DNA of 64,000 nucleotides. It comes from a virus (lineage: Duplodnaviria; Heunggongvirae; Uroviricota; Caudoviricetes). This document shows positions 2,389-64,000 of the stretch, one piece after another. The stretch lies in IMG/VR virus record IMGVR_UViG_3300044951_001136; one strand, written 5' to 3'. Every line of letters starts with the position of its first letter. The stretch's first letter is position 1. Position numbers and translations under genes: made by a program. The notes under the pieces are model-generated. The model did no database searches. It was not told the origin of the DNA and saw only the letters and a list, made by a program, of their open reading frames with translations.

Positions 2389-2898
2389 ATGAGAACCGAC
2401 ATATACGATCAAATAATCCTCACAGAAAATGACCTGTGTGATTTGTATATGCGTGATTCTACCCGCACTATAAAAGATTGTTTGGTAGATGAAAAGATAA
2501 CTCTGGGTACCATATTTCTTTCAAATGAAAACTTACCCGTTCTAATAGAGTATGTTAAATCTAATTTATCAGTAAAAGAATTTGATAGTCAAAATCAATC
2601 ACAATGGCAAATGCCCAAAGAATATTATGAAATGGATATTGCTAAATGGGTATTAGCTCAATGCAAAACCGAAGAAGAACTGCAACGAGCAGGTGATGAA
2701 CTATTAAAATTCCATGATAGGAATATGTTTTCATTACTACAATACTTAAAATATCTTGTTGATACTATGCGTAGTAATAACATAGTTTGGGGAGTGGGCA
2801 GAGGTAGTAGTGTGGCTAGTTTTGTGTTGTTTTTGATAGGGATTCACAGAATTAACAGTCTTTTTTACCAATTATCAATTGATGAATTTCTAAGGTGA
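2389..2898 (+). CDS. DnaE-like fragment (end of PHP/start of palm) terminating just before the catalytic Asp pair
   Basis: VWGVGRGSSVASFVLFLIGI...SLFYQLSIDEFLR matches DnaE [20 protein letters not shown]...LLFERFLNPER; stop falls where DnaE PDFDVDF would follow. Confidence 0.55.
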   Translation: MRTDIYDQIILTENDLCDLYMRDSTRTIKDCLVDEKITLGTIFLSNENLPVLIEYVKSNLSVKEFDSQNQSQWQMPKEYYEMDIAKWVLAQCKTEEELQRAGDELLKFHDRNMFSLLQYLKYLVDTMRSNNIVWGVGRGSSVASFVLFLIGIHRINSLFYQLSIDEFLR

Positions 2899-3344: not shown

Positions 3345-3734
3345 ATGACACACACCGAACCAAAAAAATTAGCATTTGCTCCACATAAATTCAATAAAAG
3401 CCAGTTCAACCCAATTGGCGCACATATTATCGTATGTGATATGAGTTTTGACCAACGCATTACACATGGCGGTATTCTATTGCCCAATGATGATATGAAA
3501 AGTGCAGGTATCAGGCCTCGCTGGGGAAAGATATATGCTGTGGGTTCAGAAAACAAAGATACTGACATTGTTGAAGGTAAATGGGTTTGTGTCAGTCATG
3601 GACGCTGGACTCGTGGAATTGAGATAGAAGATGAAACGGGTAAGAAAACATTGCGTAGAGTTGACGCTGATGATATACTAATGATGTCAGATGAAGAAGT
3701 ATCGGATTCAACATTAAGCGAAATGGTGTACTAA
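3345..3734 (+). CDS. GroES / T4 gp31-like co-chaperonin
   Basis: GAHIIVCDMSF...THGGILLPND...GKIYAVGSEN resembles GroES IRPLHDRVIV...AGGIVLP...GEVVAVGPG; start moved to ATG 3345 immediately after upstream TAA. Confidence 0.6.
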   Translation: MTHTEPKKLAFAPHKFNKSQFNPIGAHIIVCDMSFDQRITHGGILLPNDDMKSAGIRPRWGKIYAVGSENKDTDIVEGKWVCVSHGRWTRGIEIEDETGKKTLRRVDADDILMMSDEEVSDSTLSEMVY

Positions 3735-4018: not shown

Positions 4019-4941
4019 AAAATCAACTTTGGGTTGAGCGTTATCGTCCCAAATCTGTTAAAGATTATGTTTTTGTGGATGAACGACAAAAACAACAGGT
4101 AGAAGGTTGGATAGCTAATGGTAGCATTCCGCATCTATTGTTAAGCGGCGACCCGGGTACTGGTAAGACTACTCTTGCTAAAGTATTGATCCATGAACTT
4201 GGTGTGGAAGATTATGATGTAATGGAAATCAATGCTAGTCGTGAAAATGGCGTAGCAATCGTGCGTGATAAGATTAATGGATTTGCACAAACCATGCCAT
4301 TCGGTAAGTTTAAGGTAATCCTACTTGATGAGGCCGATTACACTAGCCCAGAGTTTCAAGCAGCATTGCGTAACGATATGGAAGCATATGCTGATACAGT
4401 GAGATTTATTCTTACTTGTAACTATGAACACAAAATCATTCCAGCATTGCGTGAAAGTCGTTGCCATAAGTTTCATATTGCTAAACCCGATCGTACAGAA
4501 TATACAGCAAGGGCAGCAACTGTTTTATTGACAGAAGGTATTGAGTTTGATTTAGATACATTGGACAGTTATGTTCGTGTAGCATACCCAGACTTGCGTA
4601 AATGTTTGAATCAACTACAAGTTAATTCAAGCACCGGTAAACTATTGCCTCCGCAATCACAGGGTAATAGCGAACATGAGCTTCTAATAGAAGCAACTAC
4701 ATTGTTCAAAGCTGGCAAGATTCTTGAGGGTCGTCAGCAACTTATGCAGTACACTGCATTGTACCCGACCCGAGTTGAAGAAATTTATACTTGGGCTTAC
4801 TCTAACTTAGATTTGTGGGGAAAGACACAAGAAAAGCGTGATGCAAGTATCATTATCATTCGCAATGGTTTGGCAACATTGCCCTTAGTAGGGATTCCTG
4901 AAATAGCAATAGCGGCCTCAATTGTGGAGTTGACGGCATGA
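4015..4941 (+). CDS. clamp-loader ATPase (RFC small-subunit / T4 gp44-like)
   Basis: LLLSGDPGTGKTT Walker A, ILLDEAD Walker B, TCNY and SRC-like segment typical of RFC/gp44. Confidence 0.8.
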   Translation: MKNQLWVERYRPKSVKDYVFVDERQKQQVEGWIANGSIPHLLLSGDPGTGKTTLAKVLIHELGVEDYDVMEINASRENGVAIVRDKINGFAQTMPFGKFKVILLDEADYTSPEFQAALRNDMEAYADTVRFILTCNYEHKIIPALRESRCHKFHIAKPDRTEYTARAATVLLTEGIEFDLDTLDSYVRVAYPDLRKCLNQLQVNSSTGKLLPPQSQGNSEHELLIEATTLFKAGKILEGRQQLMQYTALYPTRVEEIYTWAYSNLDLWGKTQEKRDASIIIIRNGLATLPLVGIPEIAIAASIVELTA

Positions 4942-5207
4942 AATATTTACTTATCCAATTCTTGAGGAAACCTAATGGCCAAATTGACGAACAGGTGTCT
5001 ATTAGCAAACGCTTGCGACCAGCAGACATTCAAACATGTAATGTCATTATGGATTTTGGTAAGAAGAAAGTTGAAAAATGCGTAGTTGAAGGAAAGACTG
5101 TGGATACAGACTGGAATAAACTAAATGAATACTATAAGCGTATTTACCCGGCATTAGTTGATCAATTAGAAAAGAATAATACTGAAAGCGAAGTTAAGAA
5201 GAAATAA
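4938..5207 (+). CDS. hypothetical protein, possibly clamp-loader small subunit (gp62-like position)
   Basis: ATGA-coupled directly downstream of clamp loader; no motif. Confidence 0.35.
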   Translation: MKYLLIQFLRKPNGQIDEQVSISKRLRPADIQTCNVIMDFGKKKVEKCVVEGKTVDTDWNKLNEYYKRIYPALVDQLEKNNTESEVKKK

Positions 5208-5231
5208 AAAGAGGGCTTAAGCCCTCTTTTT
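5206..5231. terminator. bidirectional intrinsic terminator between convergent genes
   Basis: aaaaagagggc-ttaa-gccctctttttt perfect hairpin flanked by A-run and T-run. Confidence 0.7.
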
Positions 5232-6019
5232 TAACTATACAGTTTGAGTACTTGCTCAATTATCCGGTGTCGCTGTACATCTTTTACTTCAAATTTACAT
5301 GACACAATACCGGAGACAGGGTGCTGACCAAGTCTTGTGACTAAATCGAGAAGACCATTGTTTTCTTTTCGCTGGTCTGTCTGCTCGGTATCACCCGTCA
5401 GGATAATTTTACTTCCTGACCCTATCCGGGTCATTAACATTTTTAACTGGCCTGGACGACTGTTTTGGCCCTCATCCAGAATGATGATAGAGTCCTTGAA
5501 TGTGCGGCCACGCATAAAGCCCAACGGAGAGAATTCAATGACTTGTTCAGCTATCATCTCCGCAAGCTCCTTCACCGTGTAATACTCATGCAGAATATCC
5601 ACCATTGGTCTTACCCAAGGGGCCAGTTTCTCATTCAAATCACCGGGCAAGAATCCATGATCCTCATCCTCCACGGCTACCGCAGGCCTGGTAAGAACGA
5701 TTCGTTTACATTCGCCGGCACGAAGTGCTTTAACTGCTGCCAAGATTGCAAGATATGTTTTTCCAGTACCGGCAGGGCCAGAGACGACAACAATATCTGT
5801 GTTTTCATCTAGTAATGCGATAATATAATTTTCTTGATTTAGCGATTTGGGGATCAACTGCACGGGTCTTTTATTAACCCTAGTAGTTCTTTGTGCTTGT
5901 GAGAAATCTATTGTTTTGGATTCTTTCATATAAAAAGTTTGATTTGTTTGTTTTTTGCTAGTTAAATAGCGTGAATCTTCTTGCGTTGTGCGTAAAGCAC
6001 TAGTTTTCCGTTTGCTCAA
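5231..6019 (-). CDS. phoH: PhoH-like ATPase
   Basis: VVVSGPAGTGKTYLA Walker A, IILDEGQN Walker B; whole-length PhoH-like pattern. Confidence 0.85.
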   Translation of the reverse strand: MSKRKTSALRTTQEDSRYLTSKKQTNQTFYMKESKTIDFSQAQRTTRVNKRPVQLIPKSLNQENYIIALLDENTDIVVVSGPAGTGKTYLAILAAVKALRAGECKRIVLTRPAVAVEDEDHGFLPGDLNEKLAPWVRPMVDILHEYYTVKELAEMIAEQVIEFSPLGFMRGRTFKDSIIILDEGQNSRPGQLKMLMTRIGSGSKIILTGDTEQTDQRKENNGLLDLVTRLGQHPVSGIVSCKFEVKDVQRHRIIEQVLKLYS

Positions 6020-7994: not shown

Positions 7995-8023
7995 TTGACA
8001 ATAGCAGATTATTTTGCTACAAT
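7995..8023 (+). promoter_or_regulatory. sigma70 consensus promoter TTGACA-N17-TACAAT, -10 ends 6 nt before ATG 8030
   Basis: ttgaca 7995-8000, 17-nt spacer, tacaat 8018-8023. Confidence 0.6.
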
Positions 8024-8029
8024 AATAAG

Positions 8030-8845
8030 ATGGATTATTATGAAATTTTAGGTGTTACTAAAACCGCCTCACAAGAGGATATCAAAGGGGCCTGGCGAAG
8101 ATTGGCTAGTCAGCATCATCCCGATAAGGGAGGGGATAAAGTCAAATTTCAGGAAACACAAGCTGCGTATGAAACATTAAGTGATGCAAATAAACGCCAG
8201 CAATATGATAATCCCATGCCACAAGGATTTCCGCAGCAAGGTGGAATACCCCCAGGGTTTGAACATATATTTGGTCAAATGTTTGGTCAAAATAATCCTT
8301 TTGACATATTCAGTCAACAACGTAGACAACAACAACCTCAACAACAATTATTTAGAACAACAATAAATATATCATTAGAACAAGCATATAACGGCGGTGA
8401 ACAAATATTAAAACTACAAACACCCACGAATGTACATGCCATAACCATTCAGATTCCTAAAGGGATTCAAAATGATAATCAAATGCGTATAGATAAAGTC
8501 ATAGATGGTGCTAGTTTAATAGTAGATTTTCGGGTTGAACCCCATCTCAAATATGATAGACAAGGTAATGATTTAATTTGCAACCATCCAATTTCCGTGT
8601 TAGATTTGATTATTGGCACAAGTTTTGAATTTGTTACTCTATCAGGAAAAACGCTGGATGTAACAATTAAACCTAAAACTCAACCCTATATTCAATTAAA
8701 ATTAGCGGGACAAGGCATGCCTATACTAAATGCTACTAGCTACGGTGACCAAATTATATTGTTAAAAGCATTCATCCCTGATATAATAGGAGAACAAGTT
8801 ATCAATAGCATTACGGCTTATAAACAACAAAGGAATCAAGCATGA
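8030..8845 (+). CDS. DnaJ-family co-chaperone (J domain + divergent C-terminus)
   Basis: MDYYEILGV...HHPDKGGD J-domain with HPD motif. Confidence 0.8.
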   Translation: MDYYEILGVTKTASQEDIKGAWRRLASQHHPDKGGDKVKFQETQAAYETLSDANKRQQYDNPMPQGFPQQGGIPPGFEHIFGQMFGQNNPFDIFSQQRRQQQPQQQLFRTTINISLEQAYNGGEQILKLQTPTNVHAITIQIPKGIQNDNQMRIDKVIDGASLIVDFRVEPHLKYDRQGNDLICNHPISVLDLIIGTSFEFVTLSGKTLDVTIKPKTQPYIQLKLAGQGMPILNATSYGDQIILLKAFIPDIIGEQVINSITAYKQQRNQA

Positions 8846-11103
8846 ACCATTCACCCGAAATTGATAGCATTATTGAACAAGCGATTCATCATGCTAAAGA
8901 AAGAAAACATCAATATGTAACCGTAGAACATTTACTTCTTGGTTTGATAAATCACAGTGCATTCAAAAAATGCTTGCATAGTTTTGGTGCAGATATTGAA
9001 ACAATGGATCAAGAGATTAAGGCATACTTAGACAGTTTACATGCCATTGTAAGCAAAGAGGATGAAGTAGTACCTCGTAAAACAAATAGTTTAGAACGAG
9101 TTATGAATCGTTCTGTAACACAAGTGTTATTCACCGGTCGTAGGCAAGTAACAACTATTGACTTGTATCTTAGCATTGCGGCAGAAGGGAATAGTCATGC
9201 TCATTATTTCTTGTTGAAATACGGAATCAACAAAAATGAATTTGTAGCACATTGGCAGAAAAATTATAAGCACAACGAAGTGGGTAATCTCACCGAGAAT
9301 CAAGCCGACGAAATTCTAGAAGAATATACCATCAACTTAACACAATTAGCGGCACAAGGTAAACTTGAACCAATGATTGGTCGCGGCAAAGAACTTGACG
9401 ATATCATTAATGTACTTGCTAAACGATTCAAGAGTAATGTATTGATGGTAGGTGACCCTGGGGTTGGTAAAACAGCAATCGCCGAAGGTCTAGCACAGAT
9501 GATGATCAACAAAGAAGTACCTGAATTCTTGCATGATCATCAAATATATAGCTTGGAGATTGGCTCATTGCTTGCAGGAAGTAAATATCGCGGGGACTTT
9601 GAAGAAAAAGTCAAAGCAGTACTGGATGCGTTAAACACAAAGAAAAAGACTATCCTTTTCATTGACGAGGCACATACTATGCAGGGTTCAGGGGGTTCAT
9701 CTACTGGTTCAGTGGACTTCAGTAACATGATTAAACCCGCAATTACTAAAGGTACTCTTAAAGTTATTGCTAGCACAACTTGGGAAGAATACTACGAAAG
9801 TTTTGAAAAGGACCGTGCATTGATGCGTAGATTCTATCGTGTGTCAGTTGATGAACCTAATCACGACACAACTATTCGTATATTGAATGGATTAAGTGCT
9901 AGACTTAATGATTTTCACAATGTTGAAATTACAGATGAGGCAATCAAAGCAGCAGTTGAAAGTGCTGATCGGTATATTCATGACCGAAAGAACCCAGACA
10001 AATCTATTGATTTACTTGATGCTGCTTGCGCTAAACAACGAGTAGCAGAGAACAAAGGGGCAATCATTACCAAAGACCTTGTATTTGATCAAGTTGAACG
10101 ATTCACCGGAGTCCCTGCTGACAAGATGAAGGGTGACAACTTTGATTTGATTCATAATTTAGAATCAAATATCAAGGACAAACTATATGGTCAAGATGAA
10201 ACTGTACAAAAAGTACTTGAACGAATTTATGTTAACTTTGCTGGTATTGGTAATGATAGTAAACCAACAGGTAGTTTCTTATTCTTAGGCCCTACTGGAA
10301 CTGGTAAAACAGAATTTGCCAAACTACTTAGCAAGAACTTGGATATGCCGCTACTTAAGTATGACATGAGTGAGTATTCAGAGAAGCATAGTGTTTCAAG
10401 TTTGATTGGACCTCCTCCGGGCTATGTTGGATTCGGTGATAGTCAAGTGTCGGGTGGTAGATTGATTAATGACTTGAGCAAGAACCCACATAGTATTATG
10501 CTATTTGATGAGGTTGAAAAAGCACATCCAGAAATCTTTAATATCTTTCTACAGATGTTAGATGAAGGGCATCTTACCGGTAGTAATGGCAAGCAAGTTA
10601 ACTGTAAAAACAGTATTATCATTATGACTAGTAACTTGGGTTCTAGTGATAGCGAACGCAACAACATTGGATTTGGCACACAAGAAAAGACCGGTGAAGA
10701 TGACAAAGCATTGAAAGAATTCTTCAAGCCTGAGTTCCGTAATCGTGTTGATTTGATTTGCAAGTTTAACAAGTTGGATACACTTGCTATTAAGAAGATT
10801 GTTATCAAGTTTACCGATGACTTGAAAAAGAGTTTGTTAGACAAACATGAAATTGTAATGAATCTAAGTGAGCCAGTGGTAGAATACTTAGCAGAGCAAG
10901 GATATGATAAGAAAATGGGCGCACGACCATTAAGTCGTAAGATTGATGAATTGATTCGGGTACCTCTAAGTAAGAAAGTCTTGTTTGAGCGCATTAAATC
11001 TGCAACAATCAATGTTGTAATGTCAGCCGGAGCAATTGATTTTGTAGTAACACACAAACTAACAGCAATGGTTGATGACAATGGATTAATTATTGTTAAC
11101 TAA
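8842..11103 (+). CDS. ClpA/Hsp100-family AAA+ unfoldase (two AAA modules, Clp N-domain)
   Basis: Clp_N-like VTVEHLLLGLI; D1 Walker A GDPGVGKTA, Walker B ILFIDEAH; D2 Walker A GPTGTGKTE, Walker B IMLFDEVEKAH; 753 aa like ClpA. Confidence 0.85.
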   Translation: MNHSPEIDSIIEQAIHHAKERKHQYVTVEHLLLGLINHSAFKKCLHSFGADIETMDQEIKAYLDSLHAIVSKEDEVVPRKTNSLERVMNRSVTQVLFTGRRQVTTIDLYLSIAAEGNSHAHYFLLKYGINKNEFVAHWQKNYKHNEVGNLTENQADEILEEYTINLTQLAAQGKLEPMIGRGKELDDIINVLAKRFKSNVLMVGDPGVGKTAIAEGLAQMMINKEVPEFLHDHQIYSLEIGSLLAGSKYRGDFEEKVKAVLDALNTKKKTILFIDEAHTMQGSGGSSTGSVDFSNMIKPAITKGTLKVIASTTWEEYYESFEKDRALMRRFYRVSVDEPNHDTTIRILNGLSARLNDFHNVEITDEAIKAAVESADRYIHDRKNPDKSIDLLDAACAKQRVAENKGAIITKDLVFDQVERFTGVPADKMKGDNFDLIHNLESNIKDKLYGQDETVQKVLERIYVNFAGIGNDSKPTGSFLFLGPTGTGKTEFAKLLSKNLDMPLLKYDMSEYSEKHSVSSLIGPPPGYVGFGDSQVSGGRLINDLSKNPHSIMLFDEVEKAHPEIFNIFLQMLDEGHLTGSNGKQVNCKNSIIIMTSNLGSSDSERNNIGFGTQEKTGEDDKALKEFFKPEFRNRVDLICKFNKLDTLAIKKIVIKFTDDLKKSLLDKHEIVMNLSEPVVEYLAEQGYDKKMGARPLSRKIDELIRVPLSKKVLFERIKSATINVVMSAGAIDFVVTHKLTAMVDDNGLIIVN

Positions 11104-21929: not shown

Positions 21930-22370
21930 ATGTTATCAGATAACTTAAAAACACTATTGGGCAGTACATTTGTACTGTATACAAAAACTCACGGATTTCA
22001 CTGGAATATCGAAGGAAGCAATTTCCCGCAATATCATAAATTTTTAAATAAAATGTATGATGAAATCTATGGAACTATTGATACTATTGCCGAATATATC
22101 AGAACTTTAGGCAGTTATTCTCCAGGCAGCTTAGGCAGAATGCTTGAATTGAGTATCATTGAAGAACAACATAAAATTCCTCGTGCTGAATTAATGCTTG
22201 AAGAACTACTAGTTGATTGTGAAAAAATGATTAAGTTAGTAACTGAATTATTTGACATTGCAACAGAAGAAAAAGCACAGGGAATTGCCAATTATCTAGC
22301 TGAACTACAAGACTTATATGCCAAGAAAGCATGGATGATTCGTGCTACACTTAAAAAAGCCCGTGAGTAA
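21930..22370 (+). CDS. Dps/ferritin-like protein
   Basis: STFVLYTKTHGFHWNIEGSNFPQYHKFLNKMYDEI matches the Dps ferroxidase-site region (HWNV.G..F..H..). Confidence 0.7.
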   Translation: MLSDNLKTLLGSTFVLYTKTHGFHWNIEGSNFPQYHKFLNKMYDEIYGTIDTIAEYIRTLGSYSPGSLGRMLELSIIEEQHKIPRAELMLEELLVDCEKMIKLVTELFDIATEEKAQGIANYLAELQDLYAKKAWMIRATLKKARE

Positions 22371-23746
22371 TGAGAGCAATTGAATTTATTAATGAGACTG
22401 CCTCATATCAACCGCCCAAGTTATCAGTTGGTGATAAAATCCTCAAGGGTAAATTTAAGAATAGTCCAGCAGAGATTAAAGGCTTTACTAAAGACAAGCA
22501 CAATCAACCTGTACTAAAAACTAACAAAGGTGAAGTACAGTTATTCAAGCCTCGCATTAGTAAATTAATGAAGGAAGATGAACCAATCAAAATAAGCAAC
22601 AACGATGCCGCAAAGGCTTGGATTGAAAAGGTCTATCAAAAGTATCCAACTATCTTTAAAAATAATCATGTAATGATGTGGGGCGAAGGTGACACTCAGC
22701 AGCTTGCAATGTTTGAACTAACCCCAAGTTTCAGCAAACGAGGTGCAGTAGAAGTAAAATGGTTTCAAGCATATCCACTACGTCAAGGGGTCGGCTCACG
22801 CGCAATGAAAGAATTGCAAGCCATGGCACAAGCAGATGGAATTGCACTAACATTGTTCCCTTGGCAACACGGTCAAGTAAGTCAAAGTAAACTAACAAAG
22901 TTCTACAAGGGGCAAGGCTTCGCTCCTATACACAAGGGTAGTAAGAGCATGAAGTGGGATCCAGCAGTCGGCGAAGCAATGGATCAGGGTTCAAGATGGA
23001 CCGGTGATGAGCCATATAGACAATTAGTTGAACTAGATGATTTAGAAGAAGATTGGAAGAACTGGGTCGCTGGTGGTGCTATGGCATTGGGAGCATTAGG
23101 TGCTGCTAATCAATATAATTCTCCGGTAGAACCAGTTAGAACAGCTAAAATATCTAAAATAACTCAACCCGATGCTGCTCCTGAAGTACAAGTTAAAGCA
23201 GCAACACCCGTAGTTAAAGCAGCATCTCCCACAGTAGATACACAAGCAGAAAATGTTTTATATCAAACTGCAAAAAAAGAAGGAATGAAGGGATCAGAAT
23301 TAGCACAATTTTTAGCTCAGACGAAACATGAAACTTGGAATTTTAGTAGGTTACAAGAAAAGCCACAACCAAAGGTAAAAGATTATTTTGCTAAAAAATA
23401 CGATGTTAAACATTCACCCAGAACTGCTAAGATACTTGGTAATAAACAAGTGGGAGATGGTGCTAGATATCACGGCAGAGGATATATTCAATTGACCGGT
23501 CGTGACAACTATCGTATGGCAGGTGACGCCTTGAAGATAAACTTACTCAAACAACCTGAACTTGCAGCAAGGCCTGACATAGCGTTAAAGGTAGCACTGT
23601 GGTATTGGAACACAAGAGTTAAACCGGGGATAAATAACTTTGATGATACTGCCGCAGTTACTAAGAAAATTAATTCTTCACTATCAGGATTAGAAGATAG
23701 ACACGCAAACTTTATAGATTACAAGAAACGCATTAAATCAACATGA
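22370..23746 (+). CDS. multidomain lysozyme: N-terminal domain + internal hydrophobic segment + GH19-type catalytic domain
   Basis: GRGYIQLTGRDNYRMAG ... WYWNTRV GH19 signature; hydrophobic WVAGGAMALGALGAA; N-term MRAIEFINE shared with other putative virion proteins. Confidence 0.7.
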   Translation: MRAIEFINETASYQPPKLSVGDKILKGKFKNSPAEIKGFTKDKHNQPVLKTNKGEVQLFKPRISKLMKEDEPIKISNNDAAKAWIEKVYQKYPTIFKNNHVMMWGEGDTQQLAMFELTPSFSKRGAVEVKWFQAYPLRQGVGSRAMKELQAMAQADGIALTLFPWQHGQVSQSKLTKFYKGQGFAPIHKGSKSMKWDPAVGEAMDQGSRWTGDEPYRQLVELDDLEEDWKNWVAGGAMALGALGAANQYNSPVEPVRTAKISKITQPDAAPEVQVKAATPVVKAASPTVDTQAENVLYQTAKKEGMKGSELAQFLAQTKHETWNFSRLQEKPQPKVKDYFAKKYDVKHSPRTAKILGNKQVGDGARYHGRGYIQLTGRDNYRMAGDALKINLLKQPELAARPDIALKVALWYWNTRVKPGINNFDDTAAVTKKINSSLSGLEDRHANFIDYKKRIKST

Positions 23747-25383: not shown

Positions 25384-25992
25384 ATGCTTAAACTACTCTT
25401 TCCGTTGCCAAAAGAAGTTGTTGTCGCACTAAGCGGCGGGGTTGACTCTGTTGCTATTACAGATTTCCTTTCCCGTAAACATAAAGTAACTTGCGCTTTC
25501 TTCCATCATGGAACAGAGAATAGTGAACGGGCATTTGAATTTGTTGCTAAATTCTGCACTGAACGAAATCTTCCACTTATGGTTGGCCTGATTAAGAATG
25601 ATAAACCTAAAGTACTTAGTACAGAAGAACACTGGCGCAACGAACGCTATGACTTCTTGGACAGCTTTGGTGATTCATTGGGTCCAATTATTACCGGTCA
25701 TCACTTAGATGACTGCGTAGAAACATATCTTTGGTCATCAATGCATGGCCAGGCAAAAGTTATCCCAGCAAAAAGAAACAATGTAGTACGCCCATTTCTA
25801 ACAACAACTAAAACCGAATTCACAAATTGGTGTAAACAGAAATCTATTGATTGGTGTCACGATAATAGTAATGATGACACCAAATATATGCGTAACTATG
25901 TCAGACAACATATTATACCACACGCATTCCATATTAACCCCGGGCTAAGAACGGTGGTAAAAAAGATTGTAGAAAATCAGCAAAATGTTTGA
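25384..25992 (+). CDS. PP-loop ATP pyrophosphatase, TilS-like N-terminal domain (possibly a QueC-type role)
   Basis: VALSGGVDS PP-loop; ITGHHLDDCVETYLW and VVRPFL resemble TilS GHHxDDQAET / iRPLL; lacks the QueC Cys cluster; 202 aa. Confidence 0.65.
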   Translation: MLKLLFPLPKEVVVALSGGVDSVAITDFLSRKHKVTCAFFHHGTENSERAFEFVAKFCTERNLPLMVGLIKNDKPKVLSTEEHWRNERYDFLDSFGDSLGPIITGHHLDDCVETYLWSSMHGQAKVIPAKRNNVVRPFLTTTKTEFTNWCKQKSIDWCHDNSNDDTKYMRNYVRQHIIPHAFHINPGLRTVVKKIVENQQNV

Positions 25993-32988: not shown

Positions 32989-33663
32989 ATGGCGTATAAT
33001 AAGCAAAAAACAGACCCAGAGTTGGGTCAACGAGTACACGAACATTTAGTTAAGATGGGAGTTGAAACTCCTACTATCCCAAACAACTACGACCGTAAAG
33101 AAAAGATAGACCATATTGAAGCGCACTTTGCACATATTATGCGTATCTTAGGTCTTGACTTATCAGACGATAGTTTAATGGATACCCCAAAGCGTGTAGC
33201 AAAAATGTATGTCAACGAAATCTTTTGGGGTCTTGATTACGAAGCATTCCCTAAATGTACCGCAGTTGATAACAAAATGAAGTACAATGAAATGGTATGT
33301 GAACGCAATATTAATGTACAAAGTAATTGTGAACATCATTTAGTGATTATCTCCGGTCTAGCAACTGTCGCATATGTGCCTAAACAAAAGGTACTTGGAT
33401 TGAGTAAAATCAATCGTATCGTAGAATACTTTAGCAAGCGACCACAAATCCAAGAACGATTAACAGAACAAGTCTTTCACGCATTACAATACATACTTGA
33501 AACAGAAGATGTTGCGGTTATGGTTGACGCACAACATTACTGTGTGAAAAGCAGGGGAGTTGAGGATACGGGTAGTAGTACTGTAACAAGTAGATTAGGT
33601 GGTGGGTTTAAAACTGATCCAGCAGCTAGAGCAGAATTCTATCAATTAGCAAGGGGACGATAA
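32989..33663 (+). CDS. folE: GTP cyclohydrolase I
   Basis: NCEHHLVIISG ... LGLSKINRIVEYFSKRPQIQERLT ... DAQHYCVKSRG conserved FolE core. Confidence 0.9.
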   Translation: MAYNKQKTDPELGQRVHEHLVKMGVETPTIPNNYDRKEKIDHIEAHFAHIMRILGLDLSDDSLMDTPKRVAKMYVNEIFWGLDYEAFPKCTAVDNKMKYNEMVCERNINVQSNCEHHLVIISGLATVAYVPKQKVLGLSKINRIVEYFSKRPQIQERLTEQVFHALQYILETEDVAVMVDAQHYCVKSRGVEDTGSSTVTSRLGGGFKTDPAARAEFYQLARGR

Positions 33664-34527: not shown

Positions 34528-35031
34528 ATGACACAACTACCAGTAACATATAAGTGGACTTCCACAAAAGAGTATCACGATGCGTTCCCCTGTGCTTATA
34601 GACAGTACAAAGCCGACAGCCATTGCCAGTTTTTACATGGTTATAGCTTCTCAATGAAGTTCTATTTTGGAACAAACGACTTAGATGCGCGCCGATGGGC
34701 TGCGGATTATGGCGGCTTGAAAGAACTAAAGCAAACATTAGAGAGTCAATTTGACCATACAACATTAGTGGCTGAATCAGATCCACATCTAGACTGGTAT
34801 GTGCAGGCGGAACATCGTGGCATTATGAAATTAACTATTCTCCCCAACTTAGGATGTGAAAGTCTTGCAGATATGCTATACAAGTATGTTAACGGGGTTT
34901 ACATTCCTGATATGTGGGGTGAAAGTGAAGCAAAGCGTTTGTGGTGCTATCGGGTTGAAGTACGTGAAACACAGGCAAATATGGCTTTTAGAGAGGGGCA
35001 TCGTGAATGGAATGAGGATTTGTTTGAATGA
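34528..35031 (+). CDS. queD: 6-carboxy-5,6,7,8-tetrahydropterin synthase (QueD / PTPS family)
   Basis: SHCQFLHGYSFSM (Cx3HGx) and EHRG T-fold motifs; start moved to ATG 34528 after upstream TAA. Confidence 0.75.
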   Translation: MTQLPVTYKWTSTKEYHDAFPCAYRQYKADSHCQFLHGYSFSMKFYFGTNDLDARRWAADYGGLKELKQTLESQFDHTTLVAESDPHLDWYVQAEHRGIMKLTILPNLGCESLADMLYKYVNGVYIPDMWGESEAKRLWCYRVEVRETQANMAFREGHREWNEDLFE

Positions 35032-35413: not shown

Positions 35414-36262
35414 ATGAGCAAATTAAAAATTAGTGAACTATTTTATAGTATTCAAGGAGAAGGCCGATATATCGGAGTACCAAGTATTTTCCTACGAACA
35501 TTTGGTTGCAACTTCAAATGTGCAGGGTTTGGTATGCCAAGGGGCGAAATAAGTAGTGAAGTAGAAGATATCGCAGCCCGTGTGCATTACTACACGGCTT
35601 ACACCCAACTACCATTAGTTAGTACAGGTTGCGATAGTTATGCAAGTTGGGATCCTCGTTTCAAAGATTTCAGTCCAATACGTACTACTGATAGTATTGT
35701 TGAAAGTATTATGACAATGCTTCCGCACAAGCGTTGGATGGAAGAACATCTTGTTATTACAGGGGGTGAACCTTTGCTAGGTTGGCAACGCAGTTATATT
35801 GATTTACTTTCACATGAAAACATGACGGGTTTACAAGAACTAACATTTGAAACAAATGGCACTCAACCGTTGCAACATCAATTGAAAACCTACTTGCATC
35901 AATGGGCCATCAATCGTTCTAGAGGTGCAATAACATTTAGTGTTAGTCCTAAACTTGGTATCAGTGGCGAGAAGTGGGAAGAAGCAATATGTCCTGAAAT
36001 TATTGATGAATATAGTCAAGTAGGTCATACATATCTGAAGTTTGTTGTGGCCAATAGACAAGATGTAGAAGAAGCACAAGAAGCAGTTAATCAATATCGT
36101 ACTCACGGATTTAGGGGTAATGCTTACTTGATGCCATGTGGCGGAGTTGAAAGTGTATATAACATGAATGCCAAAACAGTTGCACTTGAAGCAATGCGGT
36201 TAGGCTGGCGTTATAGTGATAGACTTCAGGTGCCACTCTTTAAAAACGCATGGAATACCTAA
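35414..36262 (+). CDS. queE: 7-carboxy-7-deazaguanine synthase (QueE, radical SAM) with atypical Cys motif
   Basis: ISELFYSIQGEGRYIGVPSIFLRTFGCNFKC parallels E. coli QueE MFQTLQGEG...GCPVGCAWC; third Cys is replaced (CAGF). Confidence 0.75.
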   Translation: MSKLKISELFYSIQGEGRYIGVPSIFLRTFGCNFKCAGFGMPRGEISSEVEDIAARVHYYTAYTQLPLVSTGCDSYASWDPRFKDFSPIRTTDSIVESIMTMLPHKRWMEEHLVITGGEPLLGWQRSYIDLLSHENMTGLQELTFETNGTQPLQHQLKTYLHQWAINRSRGAITFSVSPKLGISGEKWEEAICPEIIDEYSQVGHTYLKFVVANRQDVEEAQEAVNQYRTHGFRGNAYLMPCGGVESVYNMNAKTVALEAMRLGWRYSDRLQVPLFKNAWNT

Positions 36263-57403: not shown

Positions 57404-58198
57404 ATGAAGCGTATTTTAACTCTCTCCGTTCTTGCTGCGGCAGTATTGGCAACAGGTTGCACTCGTATTGAAACCGGTGAGGTGGGTGTGCGTGTGGGAT
57501 TTGACAAGCAGGTACAAAGTGGTGAACTCTTGCCCGGCTCGTTCAATCAAGTATTGATCGGAGATGTACTTACATTCCCGATTAAAGATGTCAATGTCCC
57601 GTTGAATGATATGACTCCCGTTGCCAAAGACAACTCAACAATGAAAGACTTTGATGCTGTGGTTGTCTATAACATCAACCCTGCACAAGTAGCAGAGCTA
57701 TATTCTACTAAGAACAAGAGCTTCCACACTGAATTCAAGGGTGATACTTATGTGATGTACAATTACATTGTGCAAAATGCTCGTAATGCCATCTACAAGG
57801 CAGCCCGTAAGTACGAGGCCCTGGACATGGCAGATGCTCGTAGCGATATGGAAAACTTCATCAAGGAAGAAATTGTTCGCAATCTTACTGAAGAAAAGCT
57901 GGATGGTAGCATTATGATCAGTCAAGTGTTGATTCGTAATGTAGTACCAGCAGATTCAGTTGTGGCAAGTGCTAATGAATTAGTCAAAGCCAAGAACGAA
58001 CTCAAGCAGAAAGAAGTTGAAGTTAAGACTGCTGAGGCTGAAAGCCGTCGTATGGCAGCATTGGCTAACAACAGCGGTAGTTCAATTGCATTCATGCAGG
58101 CACAGGCCATGTTGAACATTAGTGAAGGTATCAAGAATGGCAAAGTGCAGACAATTGTTGTTCCTTCAAACTTTAACGCATTGATGATGACCAAATGA
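57404..58198 (+). CDS. SPFH/Band-7 (stomatin/prohibitin-like) lipoprotein
   Basis: Lipobox LATGC; IETGEVGVRVGFDKQVQSGELLPG SPFH N-terminal signature; coiled-coil C-terminus. Confidence 0.75.
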   Translation: MKRILTLSVLAAAVLATGCTRIETGEVGVRVGFDKQVQSGELLPGSFNQVLIGDVLTFPIKDVNVPLNDMTPVAKDNSTMKDFDAVVVYNINPAQVAELYSTKNKSFHTEFKGDTYVMYNYIVQNARNAIYKAARKYEALDMADARSDMENFIKEEIVRNLTEEKLDGSIMISQVLIRNVVPADSVVASANELVKAKNELKQKEVEVKTAEAESRRMAALANNSGSSIAFMQAQAMLNISEGIKNGKVQTIVVPSNFNALMMTK

Positions 58199-61556: not shown

Positions 61557-62759
61557 ATGACTTCAGAAAATAAACTAATACATTGTTCTTTTTGTAACAC
61601 CCACAAAGATAAAGTTAAAAAACTTATCGTAAGTGAAGATGTTGCAATTTGCAGCGATTGTATTGTATTATGTAATAACTTGGTTGAAGATGATAGTTTA
61701 GTAGTTGATACTCAATCCAAAGAAGAAGTTAAATACGATCCTTCTGATATCAAGGAATACTTAGATGAGCATGTTATCGGTCAAGATAATGCTAAAATGG
61801 TATTGAGTGTTGCTATTGCTAATCATTACAAACGCATTACCTATCCGCCAAAAGACTTAGAAATTCAAAAGGGCAATGTGTTACTGATCGGGCCCACGGG
61901 ATCAGGTAAAACTTTGCTGGCAAAGACAGTGGCAAAATATCTTAAAGTTCCTTTTGTTGTAACTGATGCTACTAGTTTGACAGAAGCTGGTTATGTGGGT
62001 GATGATGTTGAATCAATGATTAGTATGTTAGTTAATGCTGCTGGTGGAGATCCTAGACTGGCGGAACGCGGCATTGTGTTTGTTGATGAAATTGACAAGA
62101 TTGCCCGCAAGAGTGAAAGTGCAAGTATTACCCGTGATGTGTCGGGTGAGGGTGTTCAACAAGCATTGCTTAAATTAGTAGAAGGTACAATTTGTCGTAT
62201 CCCAGCAGCAGGTGGTAGAAAGCATCCTGGTGGTGATATGTTAGAAATTGATACAAAAAACATCCTATTCATAGCAGGAGGTGCATTTGTCGGGTTGAAA
62301 GACTTGATCAGTGATCGTAAAAATGGTTCTAATATTGGATTTAGTGCAGATATCAAAGATAAAAAGGCAGAGGGTGATCTTAAAGAAGTTACCCCAGATG
62401 ATTTGACCAAATATGGAATGATTCCCGAATTTATCGGTCGTTTCACTACTACAGTTAGTATTGGTGAATTAAACAAAGAGGAATTACTCAAAGTTCTTAC
62501 TGAAGTTAAAAACAACTATATTGAACAGTACAAATATCTGTTGAGTATTGATAATATTAAGTTGACATTTTCTCCAAGTGCATTGGATCAAATAGTTGAA
62601 AACTGCTTAAAGCTCAAGACAGGGGCACGTGGATTACACACTGAAATAGAAAAAGTTTTGATGCCGGCAATGTTTAATACGAAGAAATACAGAGAAAATA
62701 ACATTACCAAGATAGATATATCAAGAGAGCAAGTTTTAGAACCAAAATCAATGATTTAA
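61557..62759 (+). CDS. clpX: ClpX ATP-dependent unfoldase
   Basis: Zn-binding N-domain [32 protein letters not shown]; Walker [15 protein letters not shown]; VFVDEIDKI; ClpX-like length. Confidence 0.9.
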
Positions 62760-62859
62760 TCTAAATAGTATAATTTTTTGCGTATTGCTGATACACTAAA
62801 TATATGTGAGTGCCGATAGTCGGGCTCACACAGTCATATTTGCTTATAGGAGAAATAAC

Positions 62860-63312
62860 ATGACAAAAACATTAACCCTTCGTTCCCTTGACATTCCGCA
62901 ACTTCACAAATTTGGTATCGGTTTTGATACTATTTTTGATGATTTACATAGGATGCATTCCCAACAATCTAACACAAACTATCCCCCATACAATGTCGTC
63001 CAAATTACTGAGGACGAATATATGATTAGTATAGCAGTAGCTGGATTTGGTTTTGATAACCTTTCAGTAACAAAAGATAAAAACTTTTTGATTATTGAAG
63101 GTAAAAATACTATCAATGAAGAAGACTTACCTGAGATTAACTATCTACACAAGGGTATCAGTAATAGAGATTTTCGCAGAGAATTCAAACTTGCTGATCA
63201 TGTTGAGATAGTAAATGCACATCTTGAATTGGGTATTCTTAGTGTTCATCTAAAGCGTGAAGTACCTGAAGAACAAAAGCCCAGATCAATTGTAATATCC
63301 CATACTAAATAG
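62860..63312 (+). CDS. small heat-shock protein (IbpA/Hsp20 family)
   Basis: YPPYNVVQITEDEYMISIAVAGFGFDNLSV...LHKGISNRDFRREFKLADHVEI parallels E. coli IbpA; start set to ATG 62860 after AGGAGA. Confidence 0.85.
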   Translation: MTKTLTLRSLDIPQLHKFGIGFDTIFDDLHRMHSQQSNTNYPPYNVVQITEDEYMISIAVAGFGFDNLSVTKDKNFLIIEGKNTINEEDLPEINYLHKGISNRDFRREFKLADHVEIVNAHLELGILSVHLKREVPEEQKPRSIVISHTK

Positions 63313-63373: not shown

Positions 63374-63679
63374 ATGTCTAAAACAGAAACAAAAATCAAG
63401 ATTAAACCTAACCTCGCATTAGTTGAACCACCGTTGTTCAAAATCATTTATATTAATGACAATGTTACTAGTATGGAATTTGTAGTGAGTAGTTTGATTG
63501 ATTACTTTAATTATAACCAAGATACAGCGAAAACAATTACTCATAATATCCATGAAGAGGGTAGTGCGGTAGTTGCTGTTTTACCCTACGAGATTGCTGA
63601 ACAACGAGGTATTGAAGTTACACTTGATGCGCGAAGTCAAGGTTTTCCGTTGCAGATTAAAGTAGAGGCTGATGCTTAA
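63374..63679 (+). CDS. clpS: ClpS adaptor protein
   Basis: PPLFKIIYINDNVTSMEFVVSSLIDYF matches E. coli ClpS [27 protein letters not shown]. Confidence 0.8.
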   Translation: MSKTETKIKIKPNLALVEPPLFKIIYINDNVTSMEFVVSSLIDYFNYNQDTAKTITHNIHEEGSAVVAVLPYEIAEQRGIEVTLDARSQGFPLQIKVEADA

Positions 63680-63996: not shown

Positions 63997-64000
63997 TTCA

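Follow-up and report, generated by a model that had tools for sequence, protein, structure and literature searches.

Clp protease, unfoldase and co-chaperone genes of an uncultured, probably PA5oct-related freshwater jumbo phage

Genes for components of the Clp proteases and for chaperones have been recorded in several jumbo phages, and the role of these phage-borne systems is unexplained, the published ideas (host maintenance, replication control, assembly) being speculation. In Agrobacterium phage Atu_ph07, Attai et al. listed ClpX, ClpA, ClpB, ClpP, ClpS and DnaJ, with speculative roles (PMC6102473), and the jumbo-phage survey of Iyer et al. covers ClpP, ClpS, ClpA, ClpX, DnaJ, Hsp10 and Hsp20 (PMC7824862). 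Protein searches carried out here found ClpA, ClpX, ClpS and ClpP together in the PA5oct-like Pseudomonas jumbo phages (vB_PaeM_PA5oct, MIJ3, Callisto, Paride and others; Arenbergviridae) and in Sinorhizobium phage Phosso, and ClpA, ClpX and ClpP in Atu_ph07. A comparable set is considered below for the virus record IMGVR_UViG_3300044951_001136, of which a stretch of 64,000 nt (the window) was analyzed, with 10 kb on each side also read (84 kb in all). A preliminary description of the window had reported a J-domain protein, ClpA, a GroES/gp31-like protein, ClpX, an IbpA-type small heat-shock protein (sHSP) and ClpS, but no ClpP. Domain matches bear out every one of these genes and their positions. 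The phage does not, however, lack ClpP, whose gene lies just past the edge of the window, and it probably encodes a complete Clp proteolysis system of its own, consisting of ClpP, ClpX, ClpA and ClpS along with co-chaperones and the sHSP.

ClpP, its unfoldases and the ClpS adaptor

The window is a piece of the 234,546-bp metagenomic contig Ga0485158_0000001 (JGI 3300044984), which it matches with 0 mismatches. Two loci fetched from that contig (L001 and L008) overlap it over 21,103 and 10,627 nt, mismatch-free, and it therefore belongs to that genome. Proteins identical to its ClpA and ClpS are also found on further contigs from other samples, the exact ClpA on 17 contigs from several samples. 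The source is likely to be an uncultured freshwater jumbo phage with a genome of about 234.5 kb, a distant relative of PA5oct. The Clp features are as follows, in window coordinates.

67070-67657 (window-equivalent; L008 13697-14284), same contig, downstream of clpS and 3,070 nt past position 64000: clpP, 195 amino acids (aa), Pfam CLP_protease
61557..62759, + strand: ClpX unfoldase, 400 aa; passes both NCBIfam equivalogs, NF003745 (512.3 vs. 359) and TIGR00382 (484.5 vs. 370.75)
62334..62342, + strand: codons of the ClpX IGF tripeptide (ClpP-docking loop), aa 260-262, aligned with the IGF of E. coli ClpX (PDB alignment)
8842..11103, + strand: ClpA-type double-ring AAA+ unfoldase, 753 aa, with Clp_N, two AAA+ modules and D2-small
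10666..10674, + strand: codons of the ClpA IGF tripeptide (ClpP-docking loop), aa 609-611, aligned to E. coli and phage ClpA homologues; E. coli has IGL
63374..63679, + strand: ClpS adaptor, 101 aa; Pfam ClpS 79.5 bits vs. 23, 1.6e-22; PDB ClpS matches to 5e-13
63455..63475, + strand: ClpS N-degron pocket motif N-D-N-V-T-S-M, aa 28-34 (E. coli N34-D35-D36-Y37-T38-P39-M40)

As a statement about the window, the reported absence of ClpP is literally true: E. coli ClpP used as a tblastn query gave nothing better than E=10, and no CLP_protease was found among the window's Pfam matches. With clpP 3,070 nt beyond its end on the same contig, though, the absence is a window-edge effect. The encoded protein scores 257.3 bits against the Pfam CLP_protease model (cut-off 20.2), shows about 61% identity to E. 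coli ClpP (match to 1tyf, E 8e-72) and keeps the Ser-His-Asp triad (E. coli S97/H122/D171) in the alignment. It passes the NCBIfam subfamily model NF001368 (299.1 vs. 249) and falls narrowly short of the equivalog TIGR00493 (290.7 vs. 308.6). From its upstream ATG it begins MSLVPMV, matching the N-terminus of mature E. coli ClpP, with no propeptide. Among the eight residues of the hydrophobic pocket, six are identical to those of E. coli, with S and Y at the positions of Y60 and F112. The gene has an AAGGAA Shine-Dalgarno sequence, with a TTGACT-17-TACAAT site 23 nt further upstream, and sits among early-type genes behind this sigma-70-like site. It is also present at all four of the clpS loci shown.

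ClpX has the expected features of the bacterial protein, including a C4 zinc finger (Cys 10, 13, 32 and 35; Pfam zf-C4_ClpX 45.1 vs. 27), a GYVG pore loop at aa 145-148, an RKH loop at aa 221-223 and conserved Walker motifs. The alignment of ClpA with its E. coli counterpart (1ksf; residues 6-718 vs. 5-725, E 2e-181) runs from end to end with no M-domain insertion, and each of the two rings keeps its Walker A and B motifs and its pore loops. Its best NCBIfam family is ClpA (TIGR02639, 786.5 bits, below the 993.15 cut-off; ClpB scores 647), and by these comparisons it is a divergent ClpA. The preliminary description had proposed looking for ClpP-docking loops in both unfoldases, and they are there, so that a protease-coupled role is supported and a purely chaperone one is not required; judging from these residues, ClpX and ClpA are both built to dock on a ClpP. 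When six phage ClpA proteins were compared, the docking tripeptide was IGF in all four from phages with a ClpP of their own and IGM or IGV in the two from ClpA-only phages (Asteriusvirus Ecwhy_1 and Vibrio phage 2.275.O).

ClpS falls short of the NCBIfam equivalogs (67.7 vs. 149 and 66.8 vs. 112). In E. coli numbering, the alignments show that it keeps N34, D35, T38, M40 and H66, with N in place of D36; the ClpA-contact positions are also kept, E79 as such and K84 as R. The N-degron pocket of E. coli ClpS is reported to comprise N34, D35, D36, T38, M40 and H66 (Erbse 2006, Wang 2008 and Schuenemann 2009). Across 80 related loci (L020-L099), N, E, S and D all occur at the D36 position, and M, V, Y, I, L and S at that of the gatekeeper M40. 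The ClpS of PA5oct likewise has N-D-N, whereas that of Phosso has the canonical N-D-D. ClpS is the most divergent component of the set, with 55-95% identity within the clade vs. 81-99% among the best 80 ClpP relatives.

The arrangement of these genes is conserved well beyond the window. When the two gene clusters were compared by megablast with 50,697 phage records, no nucleotide match was found, so the relationships rest on proteins. In a tblastn comparison, all window ORFs (open reading frames) searched against the corresponding PA5oct stretch gave collinear matches at 29-58% identity. The PA5oct genes follow the same order: in one stretch a chaperonin gene is succeeded by a clamp-loader homologue, phoH (opposite strand), two more genes, DnaJ and ClpA, and a second cluster runs ClpX, sHSP, ClpS, DNA ligase, ClpP. 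In IMG/VR, 294 contigs have a relative of the sHSP (the best 80 being 70-87% identical) and 529 a relative of ClpP (best 80, 81-99%), and at 294 to 529 contigs the window's clade is abundant. Among the best 80 of the sHSP loci, on which the synteny counts are based, clpS is downstream of the sHSP gene in all 80, and clpX, sHSP and clpS follow in order in 66. At least 15 contigs are in both top-80 lists (sHSP and ClpP), and on them a few kb separate the two genes.

Co-chaperones, the small heat-shock protein and its leader

Upstream of clpA and elsewhere in the window are genes for two putative co-chaperones.

7995..8023, + strand: sigma-70-like promoter-like site TTGACA-17-TACAAT, TG-extended, 11/12 consensus positions, before the DnaJ-ClpA operon
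8030..8845, + strand: class B (CbpA/Sis1-type) J-domain co-chaperone, 271 aa; Pfam DnaJ 1.9e-21, DnaJ_C 2.6e-26
3345..3734, + strand: GroES/T4 gp31-like co-chaperonin, 129 aa; Pfam Cpn10 23.4 bits vs. 21.1 (marginal); PHROG matches

The J-protein has an HPD motif at aa 30-32 and a G/F-rich linker, and because it holds only one Cys it has no CXXCXGXG zinc finger. Its score against the NCBIfam DnaJ equivalog TIGR02349 is 166, below the cut-off of 377. Identity as a class A protein (bacterial DnaJ) was considered and ruled out on these two counts; from its J domain with HPD, G/F region and DnaJ_C domain, the product of 8030-8845 is a class B J-protein and not a full DnaJ. Its stop codon and the clpA start codon overlap as ATGA, so the two genes are translationally coupled, in agreement with the single operon given in the preliminary description. 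A J-protein gene adjoins clpA in four distant jumbo-phage lineages, namely the window's clade, PA5oct, Atu_ph07 and Phosso, with a peptide deformylase gene between the two in Phosso.

The same description placed a consensus early promoter before this operon. The sequence is there, matching the consensus as listed, but sites of this kind are no commoner in the region than chance would give (18 found vs. 17.5 expected from shuffled sequence). Its -10 hexamer ends 6 nt before ATG 8030, with no Shine-Dalgarno sequence there, and a transcript starting from it would therefore be leaderless or nearly so. As judged from the sequence, it is at most a plausible promoter.

The evidence for the GroES-like protein is weak but consistent. 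In addition to the marginal Cpn10 score, it matches PHROG 931 ("head morphogenesis", 2.9e-11) and PHROG 3188 ("co-chaperonin GroES", 1.4e-5), with no NCBIfam match, and its PA5oct counterpart, the "chaperonin" gp290, shows 36.6% identity and is in a syntenic position. The product of 3345-3734 thus looks Cpn10/gp31-like.

Between clpX and clpS is the sHSP gene, preceded by a leader that resembles a known class of RNA thermometers.

62799..62871, + strand: ROSE-like two-hairpin element in the 5' untranslated region (5'UTR) of the sHSP gene; Rfam ROSE_3, own covariance model, fold
62860..63312, + strand: IbpA-type sHSP, 150 aa; Pfam HSP20 6.7e-14, 52.3 vs. 20.8; PHROG 432, 1e-39

The best NCBIfam family for the sHSP is IbpA, at 124.2 bits, below the equivalog cut-off of 212. 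A GTG at 62806 was considered as its start and rejected in favor of ATG 62860, since the ROSE-like element spans 62805-62865. The AUG of the ROSE_3 model falls on ATG 62860, and the start was therefore placed there. A AAATAGTATAAT repeat around this gene is not significant, with four matches vs. 1.5 expected, a number equaled in 9 of 100 shuffles.

Rfam ROSE_3 matches over the full model at 24.7 bits (E 0.027), below its gathering score of 43, and the predicted fold has two hairpins (z = -3.0). Hairpin II pairs an invariant UUGCU with the AGGAG Shine-Dalgarno sequence around a bulged G, and GUCAU with the start region AUGAC; being invariant, it shows conservation and no covariation. Hairpin I has compensatory changes at 8 of its 11 pairs, and 97% of cells are paired vs. 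at most 50% in slid controls, a figure to be read with the alignment having been fitted to the model. With a covariance model (R1) made from the relatives, each related locus gave a single match, 77 in total, whose end lies about 10 nt inside the coding sequence of the sHSP. The same model gave no second match in the window and no match at the sHSP loci of PA5oct or Phosso, where a ROSE element upstream of the sHSP genes was also looked for and not found. Nearest-neighbor modeling with ViennaRNA at 5-50 C showed no opening or melting of the hairpins; such models miss the non-canonical pairs of ROSE elements.

Comparison with the ROSE-like thermometer of Pseudomonas ibpA (Rfam ROSE_3), which has UUGCU/AGGAG-type pairing around a bulged G (PMC3669281), shows likenesses and differences. 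Both are two-hairpin 5'UTRs of about 60 nt before an ibpA-type gene, and in both the 3' hairpin holds an imperfect pairing of U(U/C)GCU with the Shine-Dalgarno sequence. Unlike the Pseudomonas element, in which the AUG is unpaired, the phage one is predicted to have its AUG paired; it is also phage-encoded and scores under the Rfam gathering score. A full-text search of the literature found no report of a phage-borne ROSE element, and this leader may be the first candidate for a ROSE-type thermometer on a virus.

Possible roles of the gene set

If the phage has a Clp system of its own, its ClpX and ClpA would assemble with its ClpP through their IGF loops, giving ClpXP and ClpAPS, with ClpS serving as the ClpA adaptor. 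The class B J-protein would use host DnaK and the gp31/GroES-like protein host GroEL; the host proteins are the presumed partners, since neither HSP70 nor GroEL turned up in the 84 kb read. ClpB, Lon and FtsH were likewise not found there. Together, the set would give the infected cell regulated proteolysis and quality control independent of host gene expression, while the co-chaperones and sHSP could hold and fold aggregation-prone phage proteins. Such a supply might serve a long infection in which a very large phage proteome is made. Host expression is progressively displaced in the relative PA5oct, which relies on host RNA polymerase and whose share of cell transcripts is 21% and later 93% (PMC7318152).

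Several points weigh against this interpretation. That autonomous proteostasis is the purpose of the set is something we infer from the genes present. About 150 kb of the genome lies outside the 84 kb read, and DnaK, GroEL or FtsH may be encoded there. ClpA, ClpS, the sHSP and DnaJ all score under their NCBIfam equivalog cut-offs. With the D36N change, the substrate choice of ClpS may differ from that of the E. coli model, and mixed complexes with host ClpP are conceivable, cross-docking being plausible. Other jumbo phages keep ClpA beside tail or structural genes, which fits a role in virion assembly.

That last point leads to an alternative in which the set is a toolkit for virion assembly, with ClpP as a prohead maturation protease and ClpA, DnaJ and the GroES-like protein as morphogenetic chaperones for large structural proteins. 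The best PHROG for ClpP is PHROG 94, "head maturation protease", and RefSeq gives the same label, by automated annotation, to the ClpP of PA5oct and Atu_ph07. The phages with ClpA beside tail or structural genes are PA5oct, Atu_ph07, Asteriusvirus and Vibrio phage 2.275.O, and the GroES-like gene has its "head morphogenesis" PHROG match; T4 gp31 is a precedent for a morphogenetic co-chaperonin. The ClpP found here, however, passes a bona fide ClpP model at 299 bits (see above) and fails the NCBIfam model for a "ClpP-related head maturation protease" (NF045542, 104.3 vs. a cut-off of 120). It is without a scaffold or capsid extension, and it occurs among early-type genes alongside IGF-bearing partners and ClpS. 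PA5oct has in addition a separate prohead protease of the T4 gp21 type, gp152 (PMC7318152), confirmed here as a Peptidase_S77. When gp152 was used as a query against IMG/VR for a separate prohead protease in the genome of the window's phage, 40 loci were returned, none of them with contig names recovered for its clade in the sHSP and ClpP searches. For the chaperones, a part in assembly is compatible with the explanation preferred here; for ClpP it is unlikely, and as an account of the whole set we consider it rather improbable.

Another possibility is a protease aimed at host takeover or at host defenses, in which the altered ClpS gives phage ClpAP a degron code of its own, directed to selected host proteins. 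The pocket variants and the divergence of ClpS relative to ClpP, both described above, are in its favor. On the other hand, N34, D35 and H66 are kept, the pocket of so small a protein could have varied by neutral drift, and no L/F-transferase, the enzyme that generates N-degrons, was seen in the 84 kb examined. Taken together, this is a tentative reading, and on balance not a likely one. It can be extended to a stress-responsive degradation pathway with a private degron code, in which the divergent ClpS would steer phage ClpAP to substrates other than those chosen by the host's own system (e.g., host or defense proteins), the J-protein/ClpA operon would link host DnaK to this protease, and the sHSP would be gated by the first viral ROSE-type thermometer. 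In this composite form it is doubtful.

The preliminary description had favored a different idea, in which the phage brings nothing beyond unfoldases and an adaptor, and these dock on the ClpP of the host and redirect it to host or defense proteins. The alternative given there, a chaperone or disaggregase role for virion proteins, may hold, the findings speaking neither for nor against it. In principle, the IGF loops of both unfoldases could dock on any canonical ClpP, and with about 61% identity between phage and E. coli ClpP, cross-docking is plausible; a survey has proposed that phages with ClpS alone use host ClpAP (PMC7824862). The premise fails, however, with a canonical clpP, triad intact, on the same contig, and with clpP conserved near the ClpX-sHSP-ClpS cluster across the clade. 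A clpP just outside the window had been foreseen as the finding that would make this a self-contained protease, and the search beyond the edge turned up just that. With a clpP of its own the phage need not hijack that of its host, and this idea now seems quite improbable.

That bacterial DNA was mis-assembled or mis-binned into a viral contig is hardly credible: ClpA relatives do occur on contigs binned into Bacteroidota metagenome-assembled genomes (MAGs), and several GenBank "phage" records with Clp matches look like host contamination, but the exact ClpA is on 17 contigs from several samples, the gene order matches that of a cultured phage (PA5oct), the Clp genes are surrounded by phage genes (T4-type DNA polymerase, clamp loader and PhoH), and the MAG contigs carry the same phage neighbors.

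These findings place a very abundant group of uncultured freshwater jumbo phages beside PA5oct, a cultivable model for virus-encoded ClpXP/ClpAPS. Testable handles on the role of such systems are offered by the conserved synteny, by the link between the IGF loop and a phage ClpP, by the variation in the ClpS pocket and by the ROSE-like leader. This leader, the pocket variants and the conserved operon of the J-protein and ClpA genes still merit follow-up; the leader and the N-D-N pocket of ClpS may be new.

Gene surroundings and comparison with known systems

Some other genes in the window deserve mention. Beside a DNA ligase gene, at 57404-58198 (+ strand), is one for an SPFH/Band_7 protein (HflK/C- or stomatin-like; Pfam 1e-16), and at the corresponding place PA5oct has FtsH and an "FtsH-interacting membrane protein"; the Band_7 protein may be another proteostasis-related one. 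Genes for a TilS/QueC-like ATP_bind_3 protein, GTP cyclohydrolase I and PTPS/QueD, and a faint radical-SAM match, are found at 25384-25992, 32989-33663, about 34528-35031 and 35414-36262, the GTP cyclohydrolase I being 58.5% identical to PA5oct gp253. A 7-deazaguanine pathway is probably encoded, which suggests modified DNA or tRNA. At 21930-23746 the gene for a ferritin/Dps-like protein of 146 aa precedes that for a 458-aa protein whose C-terminal part is a glycoside hydrolase 19 (endolysin- or chitinase-like) domain. A 169-aa ORF at 2389-2898 (+ strand), 46.8% identical in PA5oct, has only a fragment-sized match to DNA_pol3_alpha (PF07733) and could represent a Pol III alpha domain that has been split or survives as a remnant. 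In three contigs from near-identical strains (L002, L003 and L004, at about 4403-6017), a gene for a 208-aa HNH_3 endonuclease is located between the clamp-loader gene and phoH; it is absent from the window's genome at about 4941-5231, a presence/absence polymorphism among near-identical strains.

Hints as to the host are weak and internally contradicted. Contigs of the clade with ClpA 92% and 64% identical (L225, L226 and L227) were binned into Chitinophagaceae and Haliscomenobacter MAGs, and these keep phage neighbors (a holin-like gene, DnaJ and ClpA). Strong Shine-Dalgarno sequences, TTGACA/TATAAT-type sites and the ROSE-type element point instead to a proteobacterial host.

In gene content, this phage will be no surprise to specialists, since the same genes are already known in the PA5oct-like phages, Atu_ph07 and Phosso. 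The preliminary description had called a phage with ClpA, ClpX and ClpS together unusual, which holds as a matter of frequency only (ClpS matched 20 of the 50,697 phage records): the same set is annotated in the PA5oct-like phages, and Phosso also has Clp proteins, DnaJ and an sHSP.

PA5oct is the closest parallel in arrangement, with a GroES-like gene, DnaJ directly upstream of ClpA, ClpX, an sHSP gene directly upstream of ClpS, ClpP, and a DNA ligase gene near the Clp cluster. It differs in encoding FtsH, none having been seen in the 84 kb read of the window's phage, and in the lack of a ROSE-like element found upstream of its sHSP gene. Its ClpX (gp255, L012 3743-4969) has MGF and is missing the RKH loop; with IGF and RKH both in canonical form in the window's ClpX, the Clp system described here is in these loops the more bacterial-like of the two. 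Atu_ph07 and Phosso, jumbo phages of 470-490 kb, also encode ClpX, ClpA, ClpP, ClpS, DnaJ and an sHSP, in Phosso with the sHSP gene close to that of ClpS. Their ClpP proteins are the closest among phages, at 64-68% identity, but their genes are dispersed over far larger genomes, and Atu_ph07 has ClpB as well.

Comparison can also be made with T4 and with E. coli. Like T4 gp31 and GroES, the product of 3345-3734 appears to be a small Cpn10-fold co-chaperonin with no phage GroEL in the region read, although its matches are weak. The phage set resembles E. coli ClpXP and ClpAP-ClpS in domain architectures, catalytic triad, Walker motifs, pore loops, IGF/IGL docking loops, the C4 zinc finger and the core of ClpS. 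It differs from them in being encoded by a virus, in having IGF rather than IGL in ClpA and N rather than D at position 36 of ClpS, and in a ClpP that has no propeptide and carries S and Y in place of pocket residues Y60 and F112.

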